A model generated the notes under the pieces. That model did no database searches. It was not told the DNA's origin and saw nothing but the letters and a program-made list of their open reading frames with translations. Shown piece after piece: positions 9,259-37,136 of a stretch of DNA of 64,000 nucleotides. Every line of letters begins with the position of its first letter. Within the stretch, counting starts at the first letter, position 1. This DNA comes from Burkholderiaceae bacterium (GTDB lineage: Bacteria > Pseudomonadota > Gammaproteobacteria > Burkholderiales > Burkholderiaceae). The stretch lies in NCBI GenBank assembly GCA_031538895.1, contig JAVKLU010000020.1:108-64107 (forward strand). Reading direction: 5' to 3'. The position numbers and the translations under genes are program-made.

Positions 9259-11883
9259 ATGGTTCAATTCGCCAAAGAAACCCTCCCCATTTCTCTAGAA
9301 GACGAGATGCGCAAAAGTTATCTCGATTACGCCATGAGTGTGATTGTGGGACGTGCGCTGCCCGATGTTCGTGATGGTTTAAAACCGGTGCATCGACGCG
9401 TTTTGTTTGCGATGCACGAAACCAATAATGTGTGGAATCGTTCTTACGTCAAATGCGCACGCGTCGTTGGGGAGGTGATGGGTAAATACCATCCTCATGG
9501 CGATCAAGCGATTTACGACACTTTGGTGCGAATGGCGCAAAATTTTTCATTGCGCTATCCACTGGTTGATGGACAAGGAAACTTTGGCTCGATCGATGGC
9601 GACAACGCTGCGGCAATGCGTTACACCGAGTGCCGACTGGACAAAATCGCTGACGAGTTACTGGCCGATATTGATAAAGACACCGTTGACTTTGTTCCCA
9701 ATTACGACGGCAAAGAGCGCGAACCGGCCGTACTGCCAACACGCTTGCCGAACTTGTTAATCAATGGGTCATCGGGAATTGCGGTGGGAATGGCGACCAA
9801 TATTCCGCCGCACAATTTAAATGAAATTACTAAAGGTGTACTGTATTTGCTGGCCAATCCTGAAGCGACGATTGATGAGTTGATGGGTTTTATTCCGGCG
9901 CCTGATTTTCCTACTGGCGGTTTAATTTATGGCGTATCGGGAATTCGCGACGCCTATCACAGCGGACGTGGACGCGTCGTGATGCGCGCCAAAACACATT
10001 TTGAACCATACGGTTCGGGTGATCGCCAAGCGATTGTTGTCGACGAAATTCCTTACCAAGTCAATAAAAAAAGCCTGATCGAACGGATGGCTGAATTGGT
10101 ACGCGATAAAAAATTAGACGGCATTAGCGATGCACGCGACGAGTCCGATAAATCGGGGATGCGTTTAGTGATTGAGTTAAAACGCGGTGAAATCCCTGAA
10201 GTCGTATTAAATAATTTATACAAACACACACAGTTACAAGACAGCTTTGGAATCAATATGGTGGCGCTGGTCGATGGTCAGCCGCGCTTATTGAATATCA
10301 AACAAGTCTTGCAATCTTTTCTCAATCACCGCCGCGAAGTCATCACACGCCGCACCGTTTTTGAATTACGCAAAGCGCGTGATCGCGGTCATGTGCTGGA
10401 AGGTTTAGCCGTGGCACTGGCCAACATCGATGACTTTATCGCCTTGATTAAAGCCGCGCCAACACCGCCTGAAGCGCGCATCGCCCTGATGAATAAAACT
10501 TGGGATTCATCCTTAGTGCGAAATATGTTGGAGCGTGCTGCGCAAAATAACGCGGGCGATGTCAGTGCCTATCGTCCGGAATCTTTGCCGGCTGATTTTG
10601 GTTTGCAAGGTGATGGTTTGTATCGTTTGTCAGAAATTCAAGCGCAAGAAATTTTGCAGATGCGTTTGCAACGTTTGACCGGTTTAGAGCAAGACAAAAT
10701 CTTGAACGAATATCATGAAATCATGACGCACATCAGCGACTTGATTGATATTTTAAAAACGCCTGCTCGGGTCACACAAATCATCATTGAAGAAACCACT
10801 GCCGTGCAATTGGCTTACGGTGAAGGTAATCCACGTCGTTCAGAAATCGAACTCAATTCAGCGGATTTAGAAACTGAAGATTTAATCACGCCAGAAAACC
10901 GCGTTGTCACCATCAGTCACACCGGTTATATCAAAGCACAAGCGCTCTCGGACTACCGCGCGCAAAAACGCGGCGGACGCGGCAAAGCGGCCACTCAAAT
11001 GAAAGAAGACGATTGGGTTGAACAATTATTTATTGGCCATACACATGACTTTATTTTGTTCTTCTCAAACCGTGGTCGCGTGTACTGGCAAAAAGTATGG
11101 GAACTGCCAATCGGCAGTCGTGCTGGGCGTGGCAAACCACTGGTCAATTTATTCCCTATGGAAGAGGGTGAAAAAATCACCGTCACCTTGCCATTGGATG
11201 GCGGGATGAGCAAATTTCCCCAAGACCATTTTGTATTTTTAGGAACCGCCGCCGGCGTAGTGAAAAAAACACCTTTGTCGGAGTTTTCTAACCCACGCAA
11301 AAACGGCATCATCGCGGTTGATTTAGATGAAGGTGATGTCTTGATCGGCGCCGCGTTGACTGATGGCACATACGACGTGATGCTGTTCTCTGACGCGGGT
11401 AAAGCAGTACGCTTTGACGAAAACGATGTGCGCAGTGTCGGCCGTGGGGCACGCGGTGTTCGCGGAATGAATTTAGATGAAGGTCAATCGGTGATTGCCT
11501 TACTGGTGGCTAAAGACGAAGCACAATCGGTGCTGACCGCCACTGAAAACGGTTTTGGTAAACGCACCTCGATTACTGAATACACGCGCCATGGCCGTGG
11601 TACTAAAGGAATGACGGCGATCAAGACCTCGGAACGAAACGGTAAAGTTGTCGCCGCGACGCTGGCGAACGATACTGACGAAGTGATGTTGATCACCAAC
11701 GGCGGTATATTGATTCGCACCCGTGTGGCTGAGATTCGAGAAATGGGGCGCGCGACACAAGGCGTGCGTTTAATTTCAATTGATGAAAACAGTTTACTGT
11801 CCGGCCTGCACCGGATTAACGAGGCAATGATTGGTGATGATGAAGAAGAAGAAGGTGAAGATGATTTTTTCTTAGTCGGTTAA
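9259..11883 (+). CDS. gyrA: DNA gyrase subunit A
   Basis: Canonical GyrA N-terminus ([28 protein letters not shown]), the active-site region AAMRYTE, and an acidic C-terminal tail. Start at MVQFAKE. Confidence 0.95.
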
Positions 11884-29907: not shown

Positions 29908-30438
29908 TCACTGACTGGCACGCACCAACCGAACTTGGCCGTAGTAGCCGTAGCGGTTGCCGTCGCCGACCTTGCCGTAGCCGAAATCGACGACCCAGGC
30001 GTAGCCGCTAGTGCCCACATACGGCGAAGATGACCAGTACCAGTTGCTGGGCGTGCTTGGAAAGGCCGTGCTGTCGATGCTGGGGTTTTGGCAACCCTTG
30101 TCGGCGAGACTGGTCAGCTCTTTCACATTGGGCAGACGCCAACCAGTCGTGCTGTTTGCGGTGTTGGCACTTTTGGCCCGGACCAGCGCTTGCTCGTGTG
30201 TATAACTTGCTGCCGTGCCGGTGCAGCTGCTGCCGCTCAGGGTTTGGCCCTCGCTGCAGCGCTTCCACACCAAGCCGGTGCGCGTGTCGGTCACCTCCTC
30301 GCCGCTGATGCTGAAGCGCTCTGCGGTGGGCCAGCTGGGGCAGGCGGCATGGGCTTTTAGGGCGGTGGCGCTCAGGGTTGCCGCCACCAGGGCCATGCAC
30401 AGCATGGGGGCCGCAGCCCGTGTCATTGAGTGTTTCAT
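29908..30438 (-). CDS. secreted DUF1566-like (Lcl C-terminal/C-type-lectin-fold) protein, DGR target 2
   Basis: Strong SD (AAGGAG) before the ATG at 30438 and a signal peptide MKHSMTRAAAPMLCMALVAATLSATALKAHA. GWRLPNVKEL motif, with the C-terminus carrying VR2 (…SSPYVGTSGYAWVVDFGYGKVGDGNRYGYYGQVRLVRASQ). Confidence 0.8.
   Translation of the reverse strand: MKHSMTRAAAPMLCMALVAATLSATALKAHAACPSWPTAERFSISGEEVTDTRTGLVWKRCSEGQTLSGSSCTGTAASYTHEQALVRAKSANTANSTTGWRLPNVKELTSLADKGCQNPSIDSTAFPSTPSNWYWSSSPYVGTSGYAWVVDFGYGKVGDGNRYGYYGQVRLVRASQ
29913..30032 (-). repeat. DGR variable region VR2 (120 nt)
   Basis: Aligns to TR end to end. Differences lie at TR adenines, except one C/G site at 29971, with one extra codon. 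Confidence 0.85.
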
Positions 30439-31850
30439 GTGATCTCCTTGAAATAAAAATCGGTGATTTCCCGCCGTCGTGTGCCGTGTTTGAGCCAGCC
30501 GGTTTGCACTGCCTGTACCCGGCTGCCGTCGGGTGTTTGCAGGGGTGCAAAGCGCAGCCATTCAAAGCCCTTTTGCACCTCGCACACCGCATGCGGCCAC
30601 TGCTGGCGCAGCCAGGCCACTTGCTCGGCCAGCGTGGTGCCTTGCAACACCCAACGCGGGGCAATCTGCCCAGCGGGGTTGATGTGAAACAAGGCCCGCA
30701 GCCAGCCGTAACGCGCAAACAAGGCATGGCTCAAGCGCACGCTGTGTGCATGGGCAAAGTGCCCCCAATAGCTGGCCAGCACGTGCTGCAACTGCGCCAG
30801 CTGCTGGGCGCTGGTGTAGATGCCACCACCCCGGCAATGGCGGGCGGCCCATTGCGCCAACTTTTGCTTGCAGTGCTGCACCACGCGGCGGCGCACCAGG
30901 CGGTGGTGCGGGTAAACCACGTAGCCCAAAAAGTCCACCCCTGCTTGCAAGGGGGCCACCCGGTGTTCGTCTTTGAGCTTTAAGCGTAAACGTGTTTGTA
31001 AAAAATCTGCAATTTGACTTTGCCACAGGCGCAGCTGCGCGGGGTTGTCGGCCAGCAGCACAAAGTCGTCCACATAGCGCACATAGTGCCGCACCTTGAG
31101 GTTGTGCTTGACAAACTGGTCCAGCTCGTTCAAGTACACATTGGCAAAAAATTGGCTGGTCAGGTTGCCAATAGGTAGGCCGCAACCGGCTGGGGCGTTG
31201 CACAGCCGCTTGTGCGGGGGCACGCGCTGCGCTGCTTCGGGGTTGCGCACGGCTTCTTGCACGGGGTGGGCCAGCAGTTTGTGGCACAGGCTGCGCAGGG
31301 AGGTGTAGATCCCCGCCTTTGCATCCAATTTGGCTGTCAACAACCGGTATAGCGTAGGCCGGTGGATGGTGTTGAAAAAATTGTGCACATCCAGCTGCAA
31401 AAACCAGCCTTGTCCGCCGCAAGCGTTTTGCTGCGCCCGCATGAAGGTTTGCAGCCGGTCTACCGCCGCGTGGCTGCCTTTGCCGCGCCGGTTGGCGTAG
31501 CTGTCGTGAATAAACACCGGCTCATACAGCGCCTCTAGCTGTGGCACCAGCCAGTGGTGCACCACCCGGTCGGCAAAGTCGGGGGCGTGGATTTCGCGGG
31601 TTTTGGGCCGGTTGACCACAAAAGAAACAGTGCGGCGCGGCACCCAGGTGCCTGCGCCCAAATCGGCTTGCAATTGCTGCAAATGCTGCAACCAGCGGCT
31701 GGCAAAACGCAGCTGGTTGGCGCTGGGCTTTTTGCCGCGCCGCGCGGCCAACCACGCGGCATGGCATTGGGCCAGCGACACCCGCACCGGCACCCGGGGG
31801 CTGGCGGTACGCGGGGTCTGAACATTCACGGCTTGCAAGTGGCGCTCCAC
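30435..31850 (-). CDS. DGR reverse transcriptase
   Basis: RT motifs: PKTREIHAPDFADRVVHH, NRRGKGSHAA, FLQLDVHNFF, GLPIGNLTSQFFANVYLNELD (the DGR-typical [IL]G...SQ box), and YVRYVDDFVLL (YxDD). The ORF-track start is a GTG 1 nt from TR, so the true start may be further in. Confidence 0.9.
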   Translation of the reverse strand: MERHLQAVNVQTPRTASPRVPVRVSLAQCHAAWLAARRGKKPSANQLRFASRWLQHLQQLQADLGAGTWVPRRTVSFVVNRPKTREIHAPDFADRVVHHWLVPQLEALYEPVFIHDSYANRRGKGSHAAVDRLQTFMRAQQNACGGQGWFLQLDVHNFFNTIHRPTLYRLLTAKLDAKAGIYTSLRSLCHKLLAHPVQEAVRNPEAAQRVPPHKRLCNAPAGCGLPIGNLTSQFFANVYLNELDQFVKHNLKVRHYVRYVDDFVLLADNPAQLRLWQSQIADFLQTRLRLKLKDEHRVAPLQAGVDFLGYVVYPHHRLVRRRVVQHCKQKLAQWAARHCRGGGIYTSAQQLAQLQHVLASYWGHFAHAHSVRLSHALFARYGWLRALFHINPAGQIAPRWVLQGTTLAEQVAWLRQQWPHAVCEVQKGFEWLRFAPLQTPDGSRVQAVQTGWLKHGTRRREITDFYFKEIT

Positions 31851-31851
31851 A

Positions 31852-31968
31852 GACTGGCACGCACCAACCGAACTTGGTTGTTGTTGTTGCGGTTGTTGTT
31901 GTTGACGTTGCCGTTGTTGAAATTGACGTTCCAGGCGTTGTTGCTATTGCCCACATACGGCGAAGATG
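31852..31968 (-). repeat. DGR template repeat (TR, 117 nt)
   Basis: In the target frame it reads SSPYVG-NSNNAWNVNFNNGNVNNNNRNNNN-QVRLVRAS, with 14 AAC and 2 AAT codons. It lies in the avd-RT intergenic space and has no credible start of its own. Confidence 0.9.
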
Positions 31969-32058: not shown

Positions 32059-32589
32059 TCATGGTTGAACCCCATCAGCCGCCCTTGGCGCAAAGCCTGG
32101 CGCTGGTGGGGTGGCACACCCACTCAGTGAAGCGGGGTGGGCCCCAGCCGGTGGCTGGGGCTGTGACCCGGCGCCCCGGTCAGGGGCGACTTGGTTTGGG
32201 CGTTGGCGGCGGGCCAAGGCCTGCCACCAACCGCCGCACTGTTTGCCTATGCCCGCCGCCAAAGTAGCGGCTTGCTCAAAAGCCGCAAAGCTGGGGCTGG
32301 GCTGGCCCTGCTGCCCCTTGTGTGTGCGCGCAAAAGCGCCCACATCCATGGTCAGCTGCAAGCAGAGCTTGTAATCGTCTACCAGCCAGAGCAGCGCCTG
32401 CACATGCTCGCCCTGGCGGGGCTTGTCGTGCACGGCTTTGTTGACTTGCTGCATGATGCCAAAGGCCCGCTGGCGCAAGTCCGTGCCCACGGTGTATTTG
32501 TGGTAACGGGCAAAACGCATGACCATTTGCTCGGTGTGCAGCAGCAAGCGGCGGCAGTCGCGGTAAATGGGGGGCAGTGGTGTGCTCAT
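32059..32589 (-). CDS. avd: Avd-like accessory variability determinant (four-helix-bundle protein)
   Basis: Lies between VR1 and TR. The helical, basic N-terminal ~125 aa (…YRDCRRLLLHTEQMVMRFARYHKYTVGTDLRQRA…AAGIGKQCGGWWQ) resembles the bAvd / 23S-IVS four-helix-bundle family. A P/A/G-rich tail of about 50 aa follows. Confidence 0.75.
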   Translation of the reverse strand: MSTPLPPIYRDCRRLLLHTEQMVMRFARYHKYTVGTDLRQRAFGIMQQVNKAVHDKPRQGEHVQALLWLVDDYKLCLQLTMDVGAFARTHKGQQGQPSPSFAAFEQAATLAAGIGKQCGGWWQALARRQRPNQVAPDRGAGSQPQPPAGAHPASLSGCATPPAPGFAPRAADGVQP

Positions 32590-32605
32590 GATTTACAAAG
32601 CCAAA

Positions 32606-32616
32606 GCGCTTCGCGC
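32606..32616 (-). promoter_or_regulatory. short GC hairpin 3' of VR1
   Basis: GCGC-TTC-GCGC, located 5 nt beyond the stop codon of target 1. The coding strand reads GCGC-GAA-GCGC. Confidence 0.5.
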
Positions 32617-32620
32617 CCAA

Positions 32621-35600
32621 TTACTGACTGGCACGCACCAACCGAACTCGGAGGCCGTCGTAGCGGTAGTAGTAGCCGCGGCTGCTGACGTCGCCGCCGC
32701 CGAAACCGACGTCCCAGGCGTAGTAGCTATCGCCCACATACGGCGAAGATGTCCAGTAATAGCTGTAGCTTGGCGTGTTGGGGAACCAGGTGCCATCCAC
32801 CGTGGGCCCGGGGTAGGCCACGCTGTAGTCCACGATGCTTTGCAGCTCGTCAGCGGTGGGCAAGCGCCAATCGCTGTAGCCGCACAGGCCTCTTGCGTTG
32901 ACGGCATTCACATAACCGTAGGTGTTGGTGGTCGCATCCATTTGCGATTGGGAGCCGTAGTAGCTGCTGTGGTAATTGGTGTAAGTGCCGTTGGGGTCGA
33001 GTGCGGGATTGCCCCTTGTGACACCACTGCCACTGGCCGGTTTGCCCTCCCACATTAAACCCGTGATATTGTCTTTGACGCATTCAGTCAGCGCATAGCT
33101 CCCCACCCTGCTGTAGCTCAAACCCAGCTTGCCGTCGCTGTTGTCATTATTGCTCACGTCGCGGCCCACCATGCCGTCTTGCTGGCTGTTGAGGCTAACG
33201 GCCGCGCTGCTGGTGCAACTGATGAGCGTGTTGCTGCCCGCGCTATAGCATTGGCTGGCGGTGATGCCGGTGTCGGTGAGTTTGCTGGTAGTGTACGCGG
33301 TAATGGTGGCCGACACCAAGGCACTATTGCCGGTGGTGTTGTAAGTGTTGGCTTTGACCAGCGCGCCGGCAGCGTAGGTGCTGCTTGACCTGGTGCTCCA
33401 ACCCCCACTACCACTGGCCACCAATAAGGCGGTACTGTTATCTGGCCAAGTAATTTTGATATTGGCATTATTGGCGGCCGTGCCGCTAACCACCACCGTG
33501 CCATTGGCTTGGGCTGCCGCACTAGTAATGGTGGGCGGAGTGGGGGAATTTTTCGCACAGACCCCACTAGCGTTTAGGCCTTGACCTACTGCACAAACGG
33601 TAAAGGTGTAAGTCTGTGTGCCCAATAAGGTACCCGTTTTATTCGCCCCACCATAATAAGTAATGGTGGCGGCATAACTGCCCGCAGTGTTGATGGTGAT
33701 GCTAATTTTGCCCGCTACCCCCGCACTAACGTTTGCGGTTTGTTCTGTGTAGCCTGTTAATTGCCACGCCACCGAACCTACATTGCTGGGTGCACCCTCT
33801 AACCAAAAATCAACACTGCTGCCTACCGTCACCGTAGGGACGCTGGTTTTGATGGTGGCGTCAAAACCAGCCGTATACAAGTCAGTTGTTTTGGCATTAA
33901 GAATCGCCAATACCGGCTCTGCCATCAAAGTGTCCGTCATTTTTTGCGATCCCTTCAGAATCACGTCTGAACTGATGACAAAAGCTTCGTCGGCACGCGC
34001 ATTCATTTGTTGCCCAATGACATATGCATCTAAAAAACCAGTGACGACATTTAAAGTGCCTTTGGCGTATTGCATCGATACTGAATCAGGAAACATGGCC
34101 AAGGCCGAATTCACCAAATTCAGCCAAACCTGCGCCATAACCATTTTTTCGTTGCTAGCGCTAAGTGTTACGCTGCCCGTAAATACGTCGGCAATCAAAG
34201 CTGCATTGCTCATATTTCCCGCAGATGCAAGACTGCTCACACATTGCAAAGGCACCGTAATCGCGGTAGTAAAATTTTTACTGGTCAGATTGTCATTACT
34301 AATTTCTCGCACTGCCGTTTGGTATTCATTGACTCTGGACTTTACATCAGGACCACAATTGTTGATTAGACTAATGATCTGCGCTGAACGATTCAAAGCA
34401 ATAATGTACTGCACCATTTTTTGCGTATCACTGGTTTGCTGTATAACCTGTGTCCCACCATCCGCCGCGATTGCCGCTACAGGATAGGCTATTTGCAGTA
34501 CCCCCGTAACCGACTTAACCCCAGCTCCAGCAACTGCCAACCAGTCGTTTAGGGCGCCACGTCCATACAAGCCTTGTCCCGTGGCCGACCAATTAGCCTT
34601 GTATAAATCACTACTGAGATATTGATTGAGCGCCGCGAATTGTTCAGCGTAGTTATTTTTAATATAGCTAGTCCGTTCAGTGTCGGGAATACCTGCCAAC
34701 TTTCCGAGTTCACTTTTTCGCTCATTTTCACTTAAACGCTCCCAAACAATACGCTTACCCGAAATAATACTTTTCGCCTTAGCGTTATCGATCATGGCTT
34801 GAATTGTTGCCAATTGTGCGCTTGTCCAAGCGGCTTTATTTTTAACCACTAAATTTTGTGCCGCCATATTGCTAGGTAATGTCAATTCACCGACATTGGC
34901 CCCTGTAAGGACATCATTTTGCAATTGTCTAAAAAGTAAATAGCCCGCATGTAAACACGATACAGTGGTAGCACAACCGTAATTAGGGGACGCCATAAGG
35001 CCCAACTTACCATCATCCGACGAACCCCAATTACCCCGCCCTGTAGTGCTTGAGTGGTAATAACCGCCGGCACGTCCTACCGGTAATTTATTATTGGCTA
35101 TTGTTTGATTGGGACGTATCTCCGGTGTTAGCCCTAACAGCACTTCTGTAACAGTGGCATTACCCACTTTAGCTTGCTGTAGCAGACTATTGCTGCGCGC
35201 CTGCGACGTGTTATTGGCACGAAAACGTTGCCCAGCAAAGCTAATTAAATAATCTCCATCTGACACAAGATTAGATGTGTTCACGCCCAAACCAATACCC
35301 ACATACACGGGAATAGTGGGAAGATTGTTTTCTGAACGGGCAATCGCGGCAGGCAAATAACCCGCCTGCGCATAATTGCCACTTAAGCCAACATCTTGCT
35401 TAGTTTGTTCGGAAAAAGCAGTAACTGGTTTTCCCATTTCATAGCAAGACACCTCCTGACATCCCGGAATAAGTCCTCCCGCAAATTGACCGTCAGGCAA
35501 ACTAATCCCATCAATCACACCATCTGCCGACAAAATTCCGGAATGAGGACTCCCTAAGGTCATTAAGGATGCCACTTTGCCCCCTACCTCTCTATGTGCT

Positions 35601-37036
35601 GTGGCATACCGCGACAGTCCTTGCAACATAGTGCGTGTCAGCACGCCACCAAACGAGTGCGCCACAATGTGCACTTTTTTGCCAGACAACTTATAAATAT
35701 ATTCTACCGTCGTCGCTAAATCATCCGCCGCCAAACGAAAGCTTTGGTTGGTGTACCAATGGAACTCAAAGGGAACCAAATTATTGCCGTTGGGCAATGC
35801 TGTTTGCATCGCCAGCTTAGGAAAGTTGCCCCAAGTACCTTCCCCTCCGCCAATCGTAAGATTAAAACCATGAACAAATAAAATGGGCTCGTACCCATCC
35901 CATTTAAACGAACGAACATCGCCTGTGATGCTGGTCTGTACTTCATAAGCAGGGCGTAGTTCGGTAGTAATGAAGAGTTCTGTCGCATCCTTAATATCGT
36001 TAAAAGTAGATTTGATCTTGTCCAAAACACCAATCCCAGGATCGTTATAACTTGGTAGACCGAAAGTCGGATCCCAAAATCGTTCGGAAACTACATCTAA
36101 AGCCGAATCGAACGCAACTTCATCCCCCTGTAGCACCACTTGCCCTAAGCCATTGCTAATAATAGGTTTAATGCCATTGTTGGCGGTACTGTGAGATACG
36201 TAAGGGTCTTTATTCAGGCTGGGGCTAGAAAATGCTTGTACAACTCTCTGTATTGCTTGGCTTATTCTCGCCAAAATAGACTGGCTACCGACATTCGCAC
36301 TAGATAAAACGCTATAGGGGTCATAAGCCGGTTTTCCTTGAGGTAGGTTAATTTTTATATTTTTATCTAATGCACTTTTCGGCAAAGAAAACTGAATTTT
36401 TTTACCGTTATCGGTATTCGCTACGGTAGTGGCTATTTGCACGGGTGCTTCTAGATTATTTGCAGATATGCTTGCCGTTTTCCCGTCACCAAGGTCAATA
36501 GACGCCCCCTGTGCGCCAAGACTGGTTGTGCTTTGTACAGCCGGTTCTACCACCGTTAGAGTGCCTTTAATGAGTGCGTAATTTTGAGTCTGAACATTGG
36601 TTGCCCTGACCACATAGTCTTGCTTGCCTACTGTTAGTTTTTTAGCATCAATTGTGAAATAGGTTTCGCCGTCTGTGCCTTTGGCTAACTGAGACATTAC
36701 GCCACTATCAAGCGTATACGTAATATCTGCTGGCCGGACGCTAGCTGCATAGCTGGCTTTAACTTGCCCATATACCGCTTGTCCTTTCACTACAGAAGTA
36801 GCGTTATCCAAAATTTGTACACTGAGAAGACCCAAATCTTGGATGTCTACTTGCTTAGCAGCCGTGGTAGGCGTGGTAGGCGTGGTAGGCGTGGTAGGCG
36901 TGGGCGTGGGCGTGGGCGTGGGCGTGGGACACGCGGTCACTAGTCCCACCAAAACACTGGCAATCAAAAACCGCGCAAAGCGTAAAAAACTTGGCGCGCT
37001 TGGTCTGTTTATTTGCGCCCGACGGGCGCGCGTCAT
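32621..37036 (-). CDS. large surface lipoprotein with an alpha/beta-hydrolase (lipase/esterase-like) domain and a C-terminal DUF1566/CLec domain, DGR target 1
   Basis: Lipobox LVTA-C after a hydrophobic segment, then a (TP)n/(TTP)n linker. Hydrolase motifs ILFVHGF and HIVAHSFGG (G/A-x-S-x-G). C-terminal SDWRLPTADEL motif and VR1 (…SSPYVGDSYYAWDVGFGGGDVSSRGYYYRYDGLRVRLVRASQ). Confidence 0.85.
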   Translation of the reverse strand: MTRARRAQINRPSAPSFLRFARFLIASVLVGLVTACPTPTPTPTPTPTTPTTPTTPTTAAKQVDIQDLGLLSVQILDNATSVVKGQAVYGQVKASYAASVRPADITYTLDSGVMSQLAKGTDGETYFTIDAKKLTVGKQDYVVRATNVQTQNYALIKGTLTVVEPAVQSTTSLGAQGASIDLGDGKTASISANNLEAPVQIATTVANTDNGKKIQFSLPKSALDKNIKINLPQGKPAYDPYSVLSSANVGSQSILARISQAIQRVVQAFSSPSLNKDPYVSHSTANNGIKPIISNGLGQVVLQGDEVAFDSALDVVSERFWDPTFGLPSYNDPGIGVLDKIKSTFNDIKDATELFITTELRPAYEVQTSITGDVRSFKWDGYEPILFVHGFNLTIGGGEGTWGNFPKLAMQTALPNGNNLVPFEFHWYTNQSFRLAADDLATTVEYIYKLSGKKVHIVAHSFGGVLTRTMLQGLSRYATAHREVGGKVASLMTLGSPHSGILSADGVIDGISLPDGQFAGGLIPGCQEVSCYEMGKPVTAFSEQTKQDVGLSGNYAQAGYLPAAIARSENNLPTIPVYVGIGLGVNTSNLVSDGDYLISFAGQRFRANNTSQARSNSLLQQAKVGNATVTEVLLGLTPEIRPNQTIANNKLPVGRAGGYYHSSTTGRGNWGSSDDGKLGLMASPNYGCATTVSCLHAGYLLFRQLQNDVLTGANVGELTLPSNMAAQNLVVKNKAAWTSAQLATIQAMIDNAKAKSIISGKRIVWERLSENERKSELGKLAGIPDTERTSYIKNNYAEQFAALNQYLSSDLYKANWSATGQGLYGRGALNDWLAVAGAGVKSVTGVLQIAYPVAAIAADGGTQVIQQTSDTQKMVQYIIALNRSAQIISLINNCGPDVKSRVNEYQTAVREISNDNLTSKNFTTAITVPLQCVSSLASAGNMSNAALIADVFTGSVTLSASNEKMVMAQVWLNLVNSALAMFPDSVSMQYAKGTLNVVTGFLDAYVIGQQMNARADEAFVISSDVILKGSQKMTDTLMAEPVLAILNAKTTDLYTAGFDATIKTSVPTVTVGSSVDFWLEGAPSNVGSVAWQLTGYTEQTANVSAGVAGKISITINTAGSYAATITYYGGANKTGTLLGTQTYTFTVCAVGQGLNASGVCAKNSPTPPTITSAAAQANGTVVVSGTAANNANIKITWPDNSTALLVASGSGGWSTRSSSTYAAGALVKANTYNTTGNSALVSATITAYTTSKLTDTGITASQCYSAGSNTLISCTSSAAVSLNSQQDGMVGRDVSNNDNSDGKLGLSYSRVGSYALTECVKDNITGLMWEGKPASGSGVTRGNPALDPNGTYTNYHSSYYGSQSQMDATTNTYGYVNAVNARGLCGYSDWRLPTADELQSIVDYSVAYPGPTVDGTWFPNTPSYSYYWTSSPYVGDSYYAWDVGFGGGDVSSRGYYYRYDGLRVRLVRASQ
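32626..32751 (-). repeat. DGR variable region VR1 (126 nt)
   Basis: Aligns to TR with invariant ends. All substitutions I can see are at TR adenines. It is three codons longer than TR. Confidence 0.85.
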
Positions 37037-37043
37037 TAGGGGA

Positions 37044-37136
<93 letters not shown>

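Follow-up and report, generated by a model that had tools for sequence, protein, structure and literature searches.

Codon insertions in the AAC-derived blocks of both variable regions of a Burkholderiaceae diversity-generating retroelement, probably acquired by reverse transcriptase slippage

The window analysed here, a stretch of 64,000 nucleotides of a Burkholderiaceae genome, carries on its minus strand a complete diversity-generating retroelement (DGR), which is best explained as being active. Its genes are arranged in the order target 1, Avd-like gene, template repeat (TR), reverse transcriptase (RT), target 2. The parts, which have been recognized from the list of open reading frames (ORFs), from Pfam RVT_1 and Lcl_C matches, from RT motifs and from a weak Avd match, are the following:

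32621 to 37036, minus strand: target gene 1, 1471 aa, from the ORF list.
32626 to 32751, minus strand: variable region 1 (VR1), 126 nt, TR + 9 nt; the same allele occurs in the independent Logan contig L034.
32648 to 32686, minus strand: AAC-derived block of VR1, seven NNC codons, CGC, four NNC codons and CGA, 13 codons against 10 in TR.
32600 to 32625, minus strand: IMH-like 3' element of VR1, AGTAATTGGGCGCGAAGCGC..., of a type common to VR2 and absent after TR.
32059 to 32589, minus strand: putative accessory gene (Avd-like), 176 aa, placed after target 1 and before TR.
31852 to 31968, minus strand: TR, 117 nt, the adenine-rich copy.
31874 to 31903, minus strand: TR block (AAC)4 CGC (AAC)4 CAA, the site of all length changes.
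30435 to 31838, minus strand: DGR reverse transcriptase, 467 aa, Pfam RVT_1 E=1.5e-16.
29908 to 30438, minus strand: target gene 2, 176 aa, Lcl_C/DUF1566 (Pfam Lcl_C E=8e-32), from the gene calls of L031.
29913 to 30032, minus strand: variable region 2 (VR2), 120 nt, TR + 3 nt; the same allele occurs in L031 and L040.
29935 to 29967, minus strand: AAC-derived block of VR2, four NNC codons, CGC, five NNC codons and CAA, 11 codons.

The RT, which is the only one in the 1.97-Mb, 83-contig genome, exhibits the DGR-type motif 4 (IGxxxSQ) as IGNLTSQFFAN at residue 223 and the YxDD box as YVDD at residue 255, and its stop codon is overlapped by target gene 2. Target 1 comprises an alpha/beta-hydrolase-like region, indicated by weak hydrolase matches, and a C-terminal Lcl_C/DUF1566 domain (Pfam Lcl_C E=3e-27, residues 1319-1468) that ends in VR1; in both targets the VR is thus located at the C-terminus of a lectin-fold protein (DUF1566/Lcl_C), as is characteristic of DGRs. 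The 176-aa Avd-like ORF has no Pfam match and matches the NCBIfam model DivGenRetAVD weakly (E=1.7e-4, 21.8 bits, below the cut-off of 80); the gene is present, at a conserved position, in all related loci. Downstream of VR1 and VR2 there is AGT[A/G]ATTGGGCG followed by a short GC stem-loop (according to folding, a short hairpin GCGC-GAA-GCGC within 32600 to 32625), while TR is followed by TGTGGAGCGCC instead. Judged from sequence, the VR-specific 3' element with its GC hairpin is a putative IMH and the differing sequence after TR the corresponding IMH*. With the exception of the Avd match, which lies below threshold, the element exhibits every testable hallmark of a DGR. Just upstream of the start of target 1, at 37047 to 37110, there is a perfect tetranucleotide repeat of about 16 units (GCTT on the plus strand, AAGC on the gene strand).

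The initial annotation described both VRs as longer than TR by whole codons, and its lengths, codon counts and coordinates were found to be correct when the three copies were aligned with MAFFT and anchored exactly on the invariant 5' 20-mer CATCTTCGCCGTATGTGGGC and the invariant 3' 22-mer GTTCGGTTGGTGCGTGCCAGTC, each of which is present in the window in exactly three copies, against zero expected in shuffles. From anchor to anchor, TR measures 117 nt, VR2 120 nt and VR1 126 nt. All three align ungapped over their first 65 and last 22 nt, and the exact gapped alignment, which had been proposed as a check, places all extra bases inside the AAC-derived block. An alignment of equal length had been sought in vain, and indeed none is possible, given that the invariant anchors are spaced differently in the three copies. 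After the invariant GTC, TR reads (AAC)4 CGC (AAC)4 CAA (10 codons), VR2 reads GGC GAC GGC AAC CGC TAC GGC TAC TAC GGC CAA (11 codons) and VR1 reads AGC AGC CGC GGC TAC TAC TAC CGC TAC GAC GGC CTC CGA (13 codons). Every complete extra codon is NNC, and all of them can be therefore derived from AAC with changes at adenine sites only, as had been claimed. In the 65-nt head of the window VRs the changes are confined to TR adenines, bar one C>G at position 29971 in VR2; this non-adenine change (AAC>AAG, Asn>Lys) is also present in the independent contigs L031 and L040. For VR1, a duplicated CGC-(AAC)4 unit (tracts of 2, 4 and 4 codons separated by two CGC codons) was considered and rejected, as it needs two jumps, whereas three additional codons combined with one AAC>CGC double change need one.

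Further VR alleles were recovered by exact look-ups of the Avd and TR-ORF proteins, which led to Logan contigs from the series of runs SRR25831485-SRR25831495. Exact look-ups of the target proteins read from their most upstream start codons gave no match. The 176-aa form of target 2 gave an exact look-up match, its cluster consisting of that one sequence, while a homologue search with the C-terminus of target 1 found only more distant proteins and a metagenome pattern scan with the 22-nt 3' anchor found only two unrelated DUF1566 genes. The VR1 of the MAG UBA7470 is a 114-N scaffold gap and its length was left out; a further VR-like end on contig C44 of the same genome was not counted among the live alleles, since its alignment to TR is ambiguous. 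The eight live alleles, with the numbers of NNC codons before and after the CGC separated by a colon, are:

VR1 of the window and L034: 126 nt, 7:4.
VR1 of L036: 122 nt, 4:5 plus 2 nt, frame-shifted, with a premature TAG.
VR1 of L035: 120 nt, 4:5.
VR2 of the window: 120 nt, 4:5.
VR2 of L036: 120 nt, 4:5, different in codon content from VR2 of the window.
VR2 of L039: 123 nt, 5:5, the 5' part also present in L032.
VR2 of UBA7470: 120 nt, 4:5.
VR2 of L035: 117 nt, 4:4, equal in length to TR.

The lengths are thus 117, 120 (four alleles), 122, 123 and 126 nt, and the offsets from TR are +3, +6 and +9 nt, with a single frame-shifted allele (L036 VR1) at +5 nt. Over the eight alleles the 65-nt head is ungapped and carries 81 A-site changes and one non-A change, the 22-nt tail is invariant, and length change is confined to the block (AAC)4 CGC (AAC)4 CAA. 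No deletion relative to TR was found among them: every length change is an insertion, seven of the eight alleles with identical TR carrying extra codons and none carrying fewer. The 3' AAC tract, the first to be copied by the RT, is the one most often expanded, by exactly one codon.

Between the backbones of the contig L036 and the window there are only 6 mismatches over 2593 positions (99.8% identity), yet L036 carries different VR1 and VR2 alleles, and L039 and L032 carry a further VR2 allele, as is expected of ongoing diversification. Since a near-identical backbone bears different VRs and Logan contigs break at the edges of VR1, both the content and the length of the VRs must change on a very short evolutionary scale, and the diversification is therefore recent. 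The 123-nt VR2 allele of L039 and L032 goes together with two changed codons immediately 5' of the VR, neither of them changed at TR adenines (TGG>GCG and TCA>GCA, window positions 30033-30050), which suggests a separate history, by recombination or older divergence, rather than one recent homing event. In L036, the +5 nt of VR1 lead to a TAG stop codon ahead of the conserved VRLVRASQ end. The target-1 gene of this contig (L036:317-1423, Logan SRR25831486), the equivalent of 32621-37036 in the window, encodes just 368 aa and lacks the greater part of the 1471-aa protein, the hydrolase-like region included.

Length differences in a low-complexity repeat might be produced by sequencing or assembly, a possibility that the initial annotation had named as one that would undo its observation. 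The VRs are indeed polymorphic in the samples, and assemblers tend to break or mix paths at such sites: L031, L032, L033 and L037 start at, or at most one base from, the first base of the VR1 3' anchor, L038 starts five bases upstream of this anchor, and L034 starts at the 5' edge of VR1, which is the break pattern expected if the variable part is polymorphic in the sample. However, L034, a contig from another run, has exactly the same 126-nt VR1 allele, L031 and L040 both have the same 120-nt VR2 allele, and the mutated VRs contain no repeated 31-mers that could be collapsed or expanded. With the same alleles recurring in independent assemblies of other runs, we consider an artefact extremely improbable.

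A second alternative, also raised in the initial annotation, is that TR has lost AAC units after the last homing event, so that the VRs keep the length of an older, longer template. It would agree with the fact that both window VRs are longer than TR and never shorter, and it has a parallel among the related DGRs found via their RTs. In about 33 TR-VR pairs of these elements, in-frame indels occur only at AAC runs (in L016, L020 with +1, L024 and L026). In L016 (5131-5268 and 7875-8011; RT 46-50% identical) both VRs have one additional codon in the same tract, inside AAC runs, for which a single contraction of TR is the economical account; in L024 (5042-5158; RT 46-50% identical) the VR has three additional codons inside AAC runs. 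For the window element, however, the comparison of TR in related strains, suggested in the same annotation, leaves TR constant at 117 nt against VRs of 117 to 126 nt. TR is base-for-base identical in eight assemblies, i.e. the window, L020 (UBA7470), L031, L034, L035, L036, L039 and L040, including backbones that are only 88% (L035, a JGI metagenome contig, over 3.4 kb) or 89-95% (L020) identical to that of the window, and the tract lengths are the same in each of the nine sequences that make up the 90%-identity cluster of the TR-spanning ORF, as NNNN-R-NNNN or NNNN-R-NNNH. Because TR is identical while the surrounding backbone is much less conserved, it is under strong constraint and stable in length. 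On the other hand, the lengths of the VRs vary among alleles (117 to 126 nt) and also among near-identical strains, for which one contraction is insufficient, and VR2 of L035 is equal in length to TR. A contraction of TR is thus effectively excluded for this element, and we assign it only a very low probability.

The insertions are best explained, with a probability of roughly 0.7, by slippage of the RT in a 3-nt register on the AAC runs during mutagenic homing. The RT would copy the TR RNA into adenine-mutagenized cDNA, and the extra codons would arise at that step. In (AAC)n two of the three template bases are adenines, which would be often miscopied, and only the C:G pair at every third position would hold the nascent strand in register; a shift by 3 nt would be cheap, since only C:G is copied faithfully. 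The nascent 3' end could re-anneal one repeat back and the same AAC be copied again, whereupon the re-copied codon would be mutagenized independently and appear as an additional NNC codon, not necessarily identical to those beside it. The longer cDNA would then enter the VR by homing, and the outcome would be variation of length as well as of sequence in the C-terminal ligand-binding loop of two lectin-fold proteins. We infer both that the slip occurs at the cDNA-synthesis step and that it is directed backward; the rationale, with its faithful C:G pair, matches a published proposal. The initial annotation had listed slippage among its options, and this option is the one supported by a constant TR, VRs of 117 to 126 nt and change confined to the AAC-derived block; the related DGRs L016, L024 and L026, whose indels likewise lie at AAC runs, speak for it too. 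Its premise that canonical homing copies the length of TR exactly holds with a qualification, as TR and VR have been found to differ in length in 25 of 372 DGRs, i.e. about 7% (Wu et al. 2018, Nucleic Acids Res 46:11; PMC5758913). One of the points that speak against slippage is the lack of deletions among the alleles, which symmetric slippage would not predict.

The third option of the initial annotation, indels after homing, would take the form of replication slippage in the VR DNA, with tandem duplication of single codons. VR1 looks at first sight like a product of such events, as it contains AGC AGC and TAC TAC TAC, whose collapse gives exactly four codons, and six of the nine expanded tracts have enough adjacent identical codons. 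Yet six of nine does not exceed the expectation for such a codon composition (null mean 4.9, p=0.33), and adjacent identical codons are absent altogether from three expanded tracts, those of UBA7470 VR2 and L036 VR2 and tract 1 of the C44 VR-like end. Moreover, trinucleotide repeats of two or three units are poor substrates for replication slippage, and the rate at which insertions would have to recur independently on a 99.8%-identical backbone is implausibly high. Tandem duplication fails for three of the nine tracts, post-homing indels are not needed to account for the insertions, and we regard them as unlikely. Because the number of identical codons equals the expectation from composition and three tracts lack adjacent identical codons, the extra codons look independently mutagenized, which fits an RT that has copied one and the same AAC of the template twice.

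It is also conceivable that the length of the loop is kept or selected in each target and is not re-drawn with each homing event, either by patchwise incorporation of the cDNA or by strong selection on length. The pattern 4:5 occurs in three VR2 alleles of different content (window, L036 and UBA7470), i.e. in three of the four VR2 alleles of the window's population and UBA7470, and many codons are common to the VR2 alleles of one population, more than chance would suggest. The insertions are unevenly spread, too: all six alleles of the window's population and UBA7470 carry one, while L041, L043 and VR2 of L035, which are more distant, are equal in length to their own TR and carry none. However, VR1 has changed between 7:4 and 4:5 plus 2 nt on a 99.8%-identical backbone, and VR2 between 4:5 and 5:5 within the same set of runs. 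In the DGRs that have been studied, the 3' part of the VR is exchanged in one block upon homing, and even if the length is retained, the initial creation of each insertion still needs an event. Retention of length could hold for VR2, whereas it fails for VR1, and as a general account we give it a small chance. A target-primed model that keeps the last old codon was rejected, as this codon varies among the VR2 alleles (GGC, TTC, CTC). The codon before the CAA-derived one is often CTC (Leu), namely in VR1 of the window (32651-32653) and in VR2 of L039 and of UBA7470, and many homologous proteins have Leu two residues before VRLVR. The frequent Leu at the last tract codon points to structural selection on the output of the DGR.

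Whether slippage is not only the source of the insertions but also so frequent that an extra codon is the usual outcome of homing in the window's lineage, instead of a rare error, is a separate matter, and we advance this proposal tentatively, regarding it as possible but rather doubtful. Because the insertions are unevenly distributed, the codons of VR2 are shared more than expected and the L039/L032 allele is linked to non-adenine differences, the apparent rate of slippage may be inflated by selection on loop length, by shared descent or by recombination between alleles. If the enzyme and not selection is responsible, the RT-Avd pair would be one with a frequent, directional backward slip on (AAC)4, and diversification of loop length would be a regular output of the element.

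Indels between TR and VR at AAC, and their reading as slippage, have been published already, and the locus in the window is a well-documented new example. In the survey of Wu et al. 2018 (PMC5758913), the length difference is a multiple of 3 bp in 14 of the 25 DGRs with unequal lengths, AAC adjoins 74% of the indels, and the indels concentrate in chromosomal, multi-target lineages; slippage of the RT was proposed there on the grounds that two of three incorporations in AAC may be mismatches. The window element resembles these cases in its multi-gene target set, in not being associated with a phage, and in in-frame indels opposite the AAC repeats of TR, with VR offsets (+9 and +3) that are multiples of 3 and lie inside the AAC tracts. 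It differs from them in that several alleles of the same VRs can be compared with an invariant TR, so that contraction of TR is excludable, and in that all changes are insertions, including the +5 nt of L036 VR1 with its premature stop codon. To the DGR of Legionella pneumophila (target LdtA; category 'd' of Wu et al., with a DUF1566/CLec2 VR) it can be likened by category, both being chromosomal, with an AAC-rich TR and a DUF1566/Lcl_C-type variable C-terminus, but the window element has two flanking targets and VR-like ends elsewhere in the genome, and its target 1 is a protein of 1471 aa with a hydrolase-like domain. With the DGR of Bordetella phage BPP-1 (Mtd, bRT, Avd) it shares the IGxxxSQ and YxDD motifs of the RT, substitutions specific to A, a VR-specific 3' element bearing a GC hairpin and, ahead of TR, a putative accessory gene. 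In contrast to the window element, TR and VR of BPP-1 are equal in length, and the match of the window's Avd-like protein to the Avd model is weak. The slippage model is taken up again in a 2026 study of reconstituted BPP-1 (PMC12875486), while negligible indels have been reported in the reconstituted BPP-1 system (bioRxiv 10.64898/2026.07.21.739853), which counts against the slippage reading.

The locus leaves the known picture of DGR function unchanged, and what it adds is evidence from multiple alleles against an invariant TR and an apparent bias towards insertion. Earlier conclusions were drawn from single TR-VR comparisons, in which a contracted TR is not excludable, whereas here one population and its relatives combine an invariant TR with VR alleles that range from 117 to 126 nt, which provides cleaner natural evidence for indels on the VR side. 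DGRs are usually viewed as changing the identity of residues at fixed positions; a change of loop length widens the shape space of the target and bears on the use of DGRs for directed evolution, and the locus is a convenient system for direct tests of RT slippage.

Apart from VR1 and VR2, two VR-like segments have been found elsewhere in the same genome. The first, at C44:14765-14866 (plus strand; locus L001:1048-1527), is a third VR-like end of 102 nt in a 159-aa DUF1566 ORF without a signal peptide. It has a perfect 22-nt 3' anchor and, downstream, the AGTGATTGGGCGGCGTAG element as in VR2, but it falls short of TR in length, and the sites at which its 5' part departs from TR are synonymous and not adenines; possibly it is a remote target in which homing has been only partial. 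The second, at C21:61241-61357 (minus strand; locus L005:1244-2059), is a 117-nt segment in a secreted DUF1566 protein of 271 aa. It departs from TR at several positions that are not adenines, its 3' anchor is mutated (GTGCGTGAAAGTC) and is not followed by a stop codon, and the segment looks like a decayed or former target. In L035, on the other hand, an orphan VR 3' end with stop codon and GC hairpin (10353-10417; CAAGTTCGGTTGGTGCGTGCCAGTCAGTGA...GGCGGCGTAGCCGC) stands without the body of a DUF1566 gene and adjoins the toxin-antitoxin genes HicAB and ParDE; a deleted target has probably left it behind.
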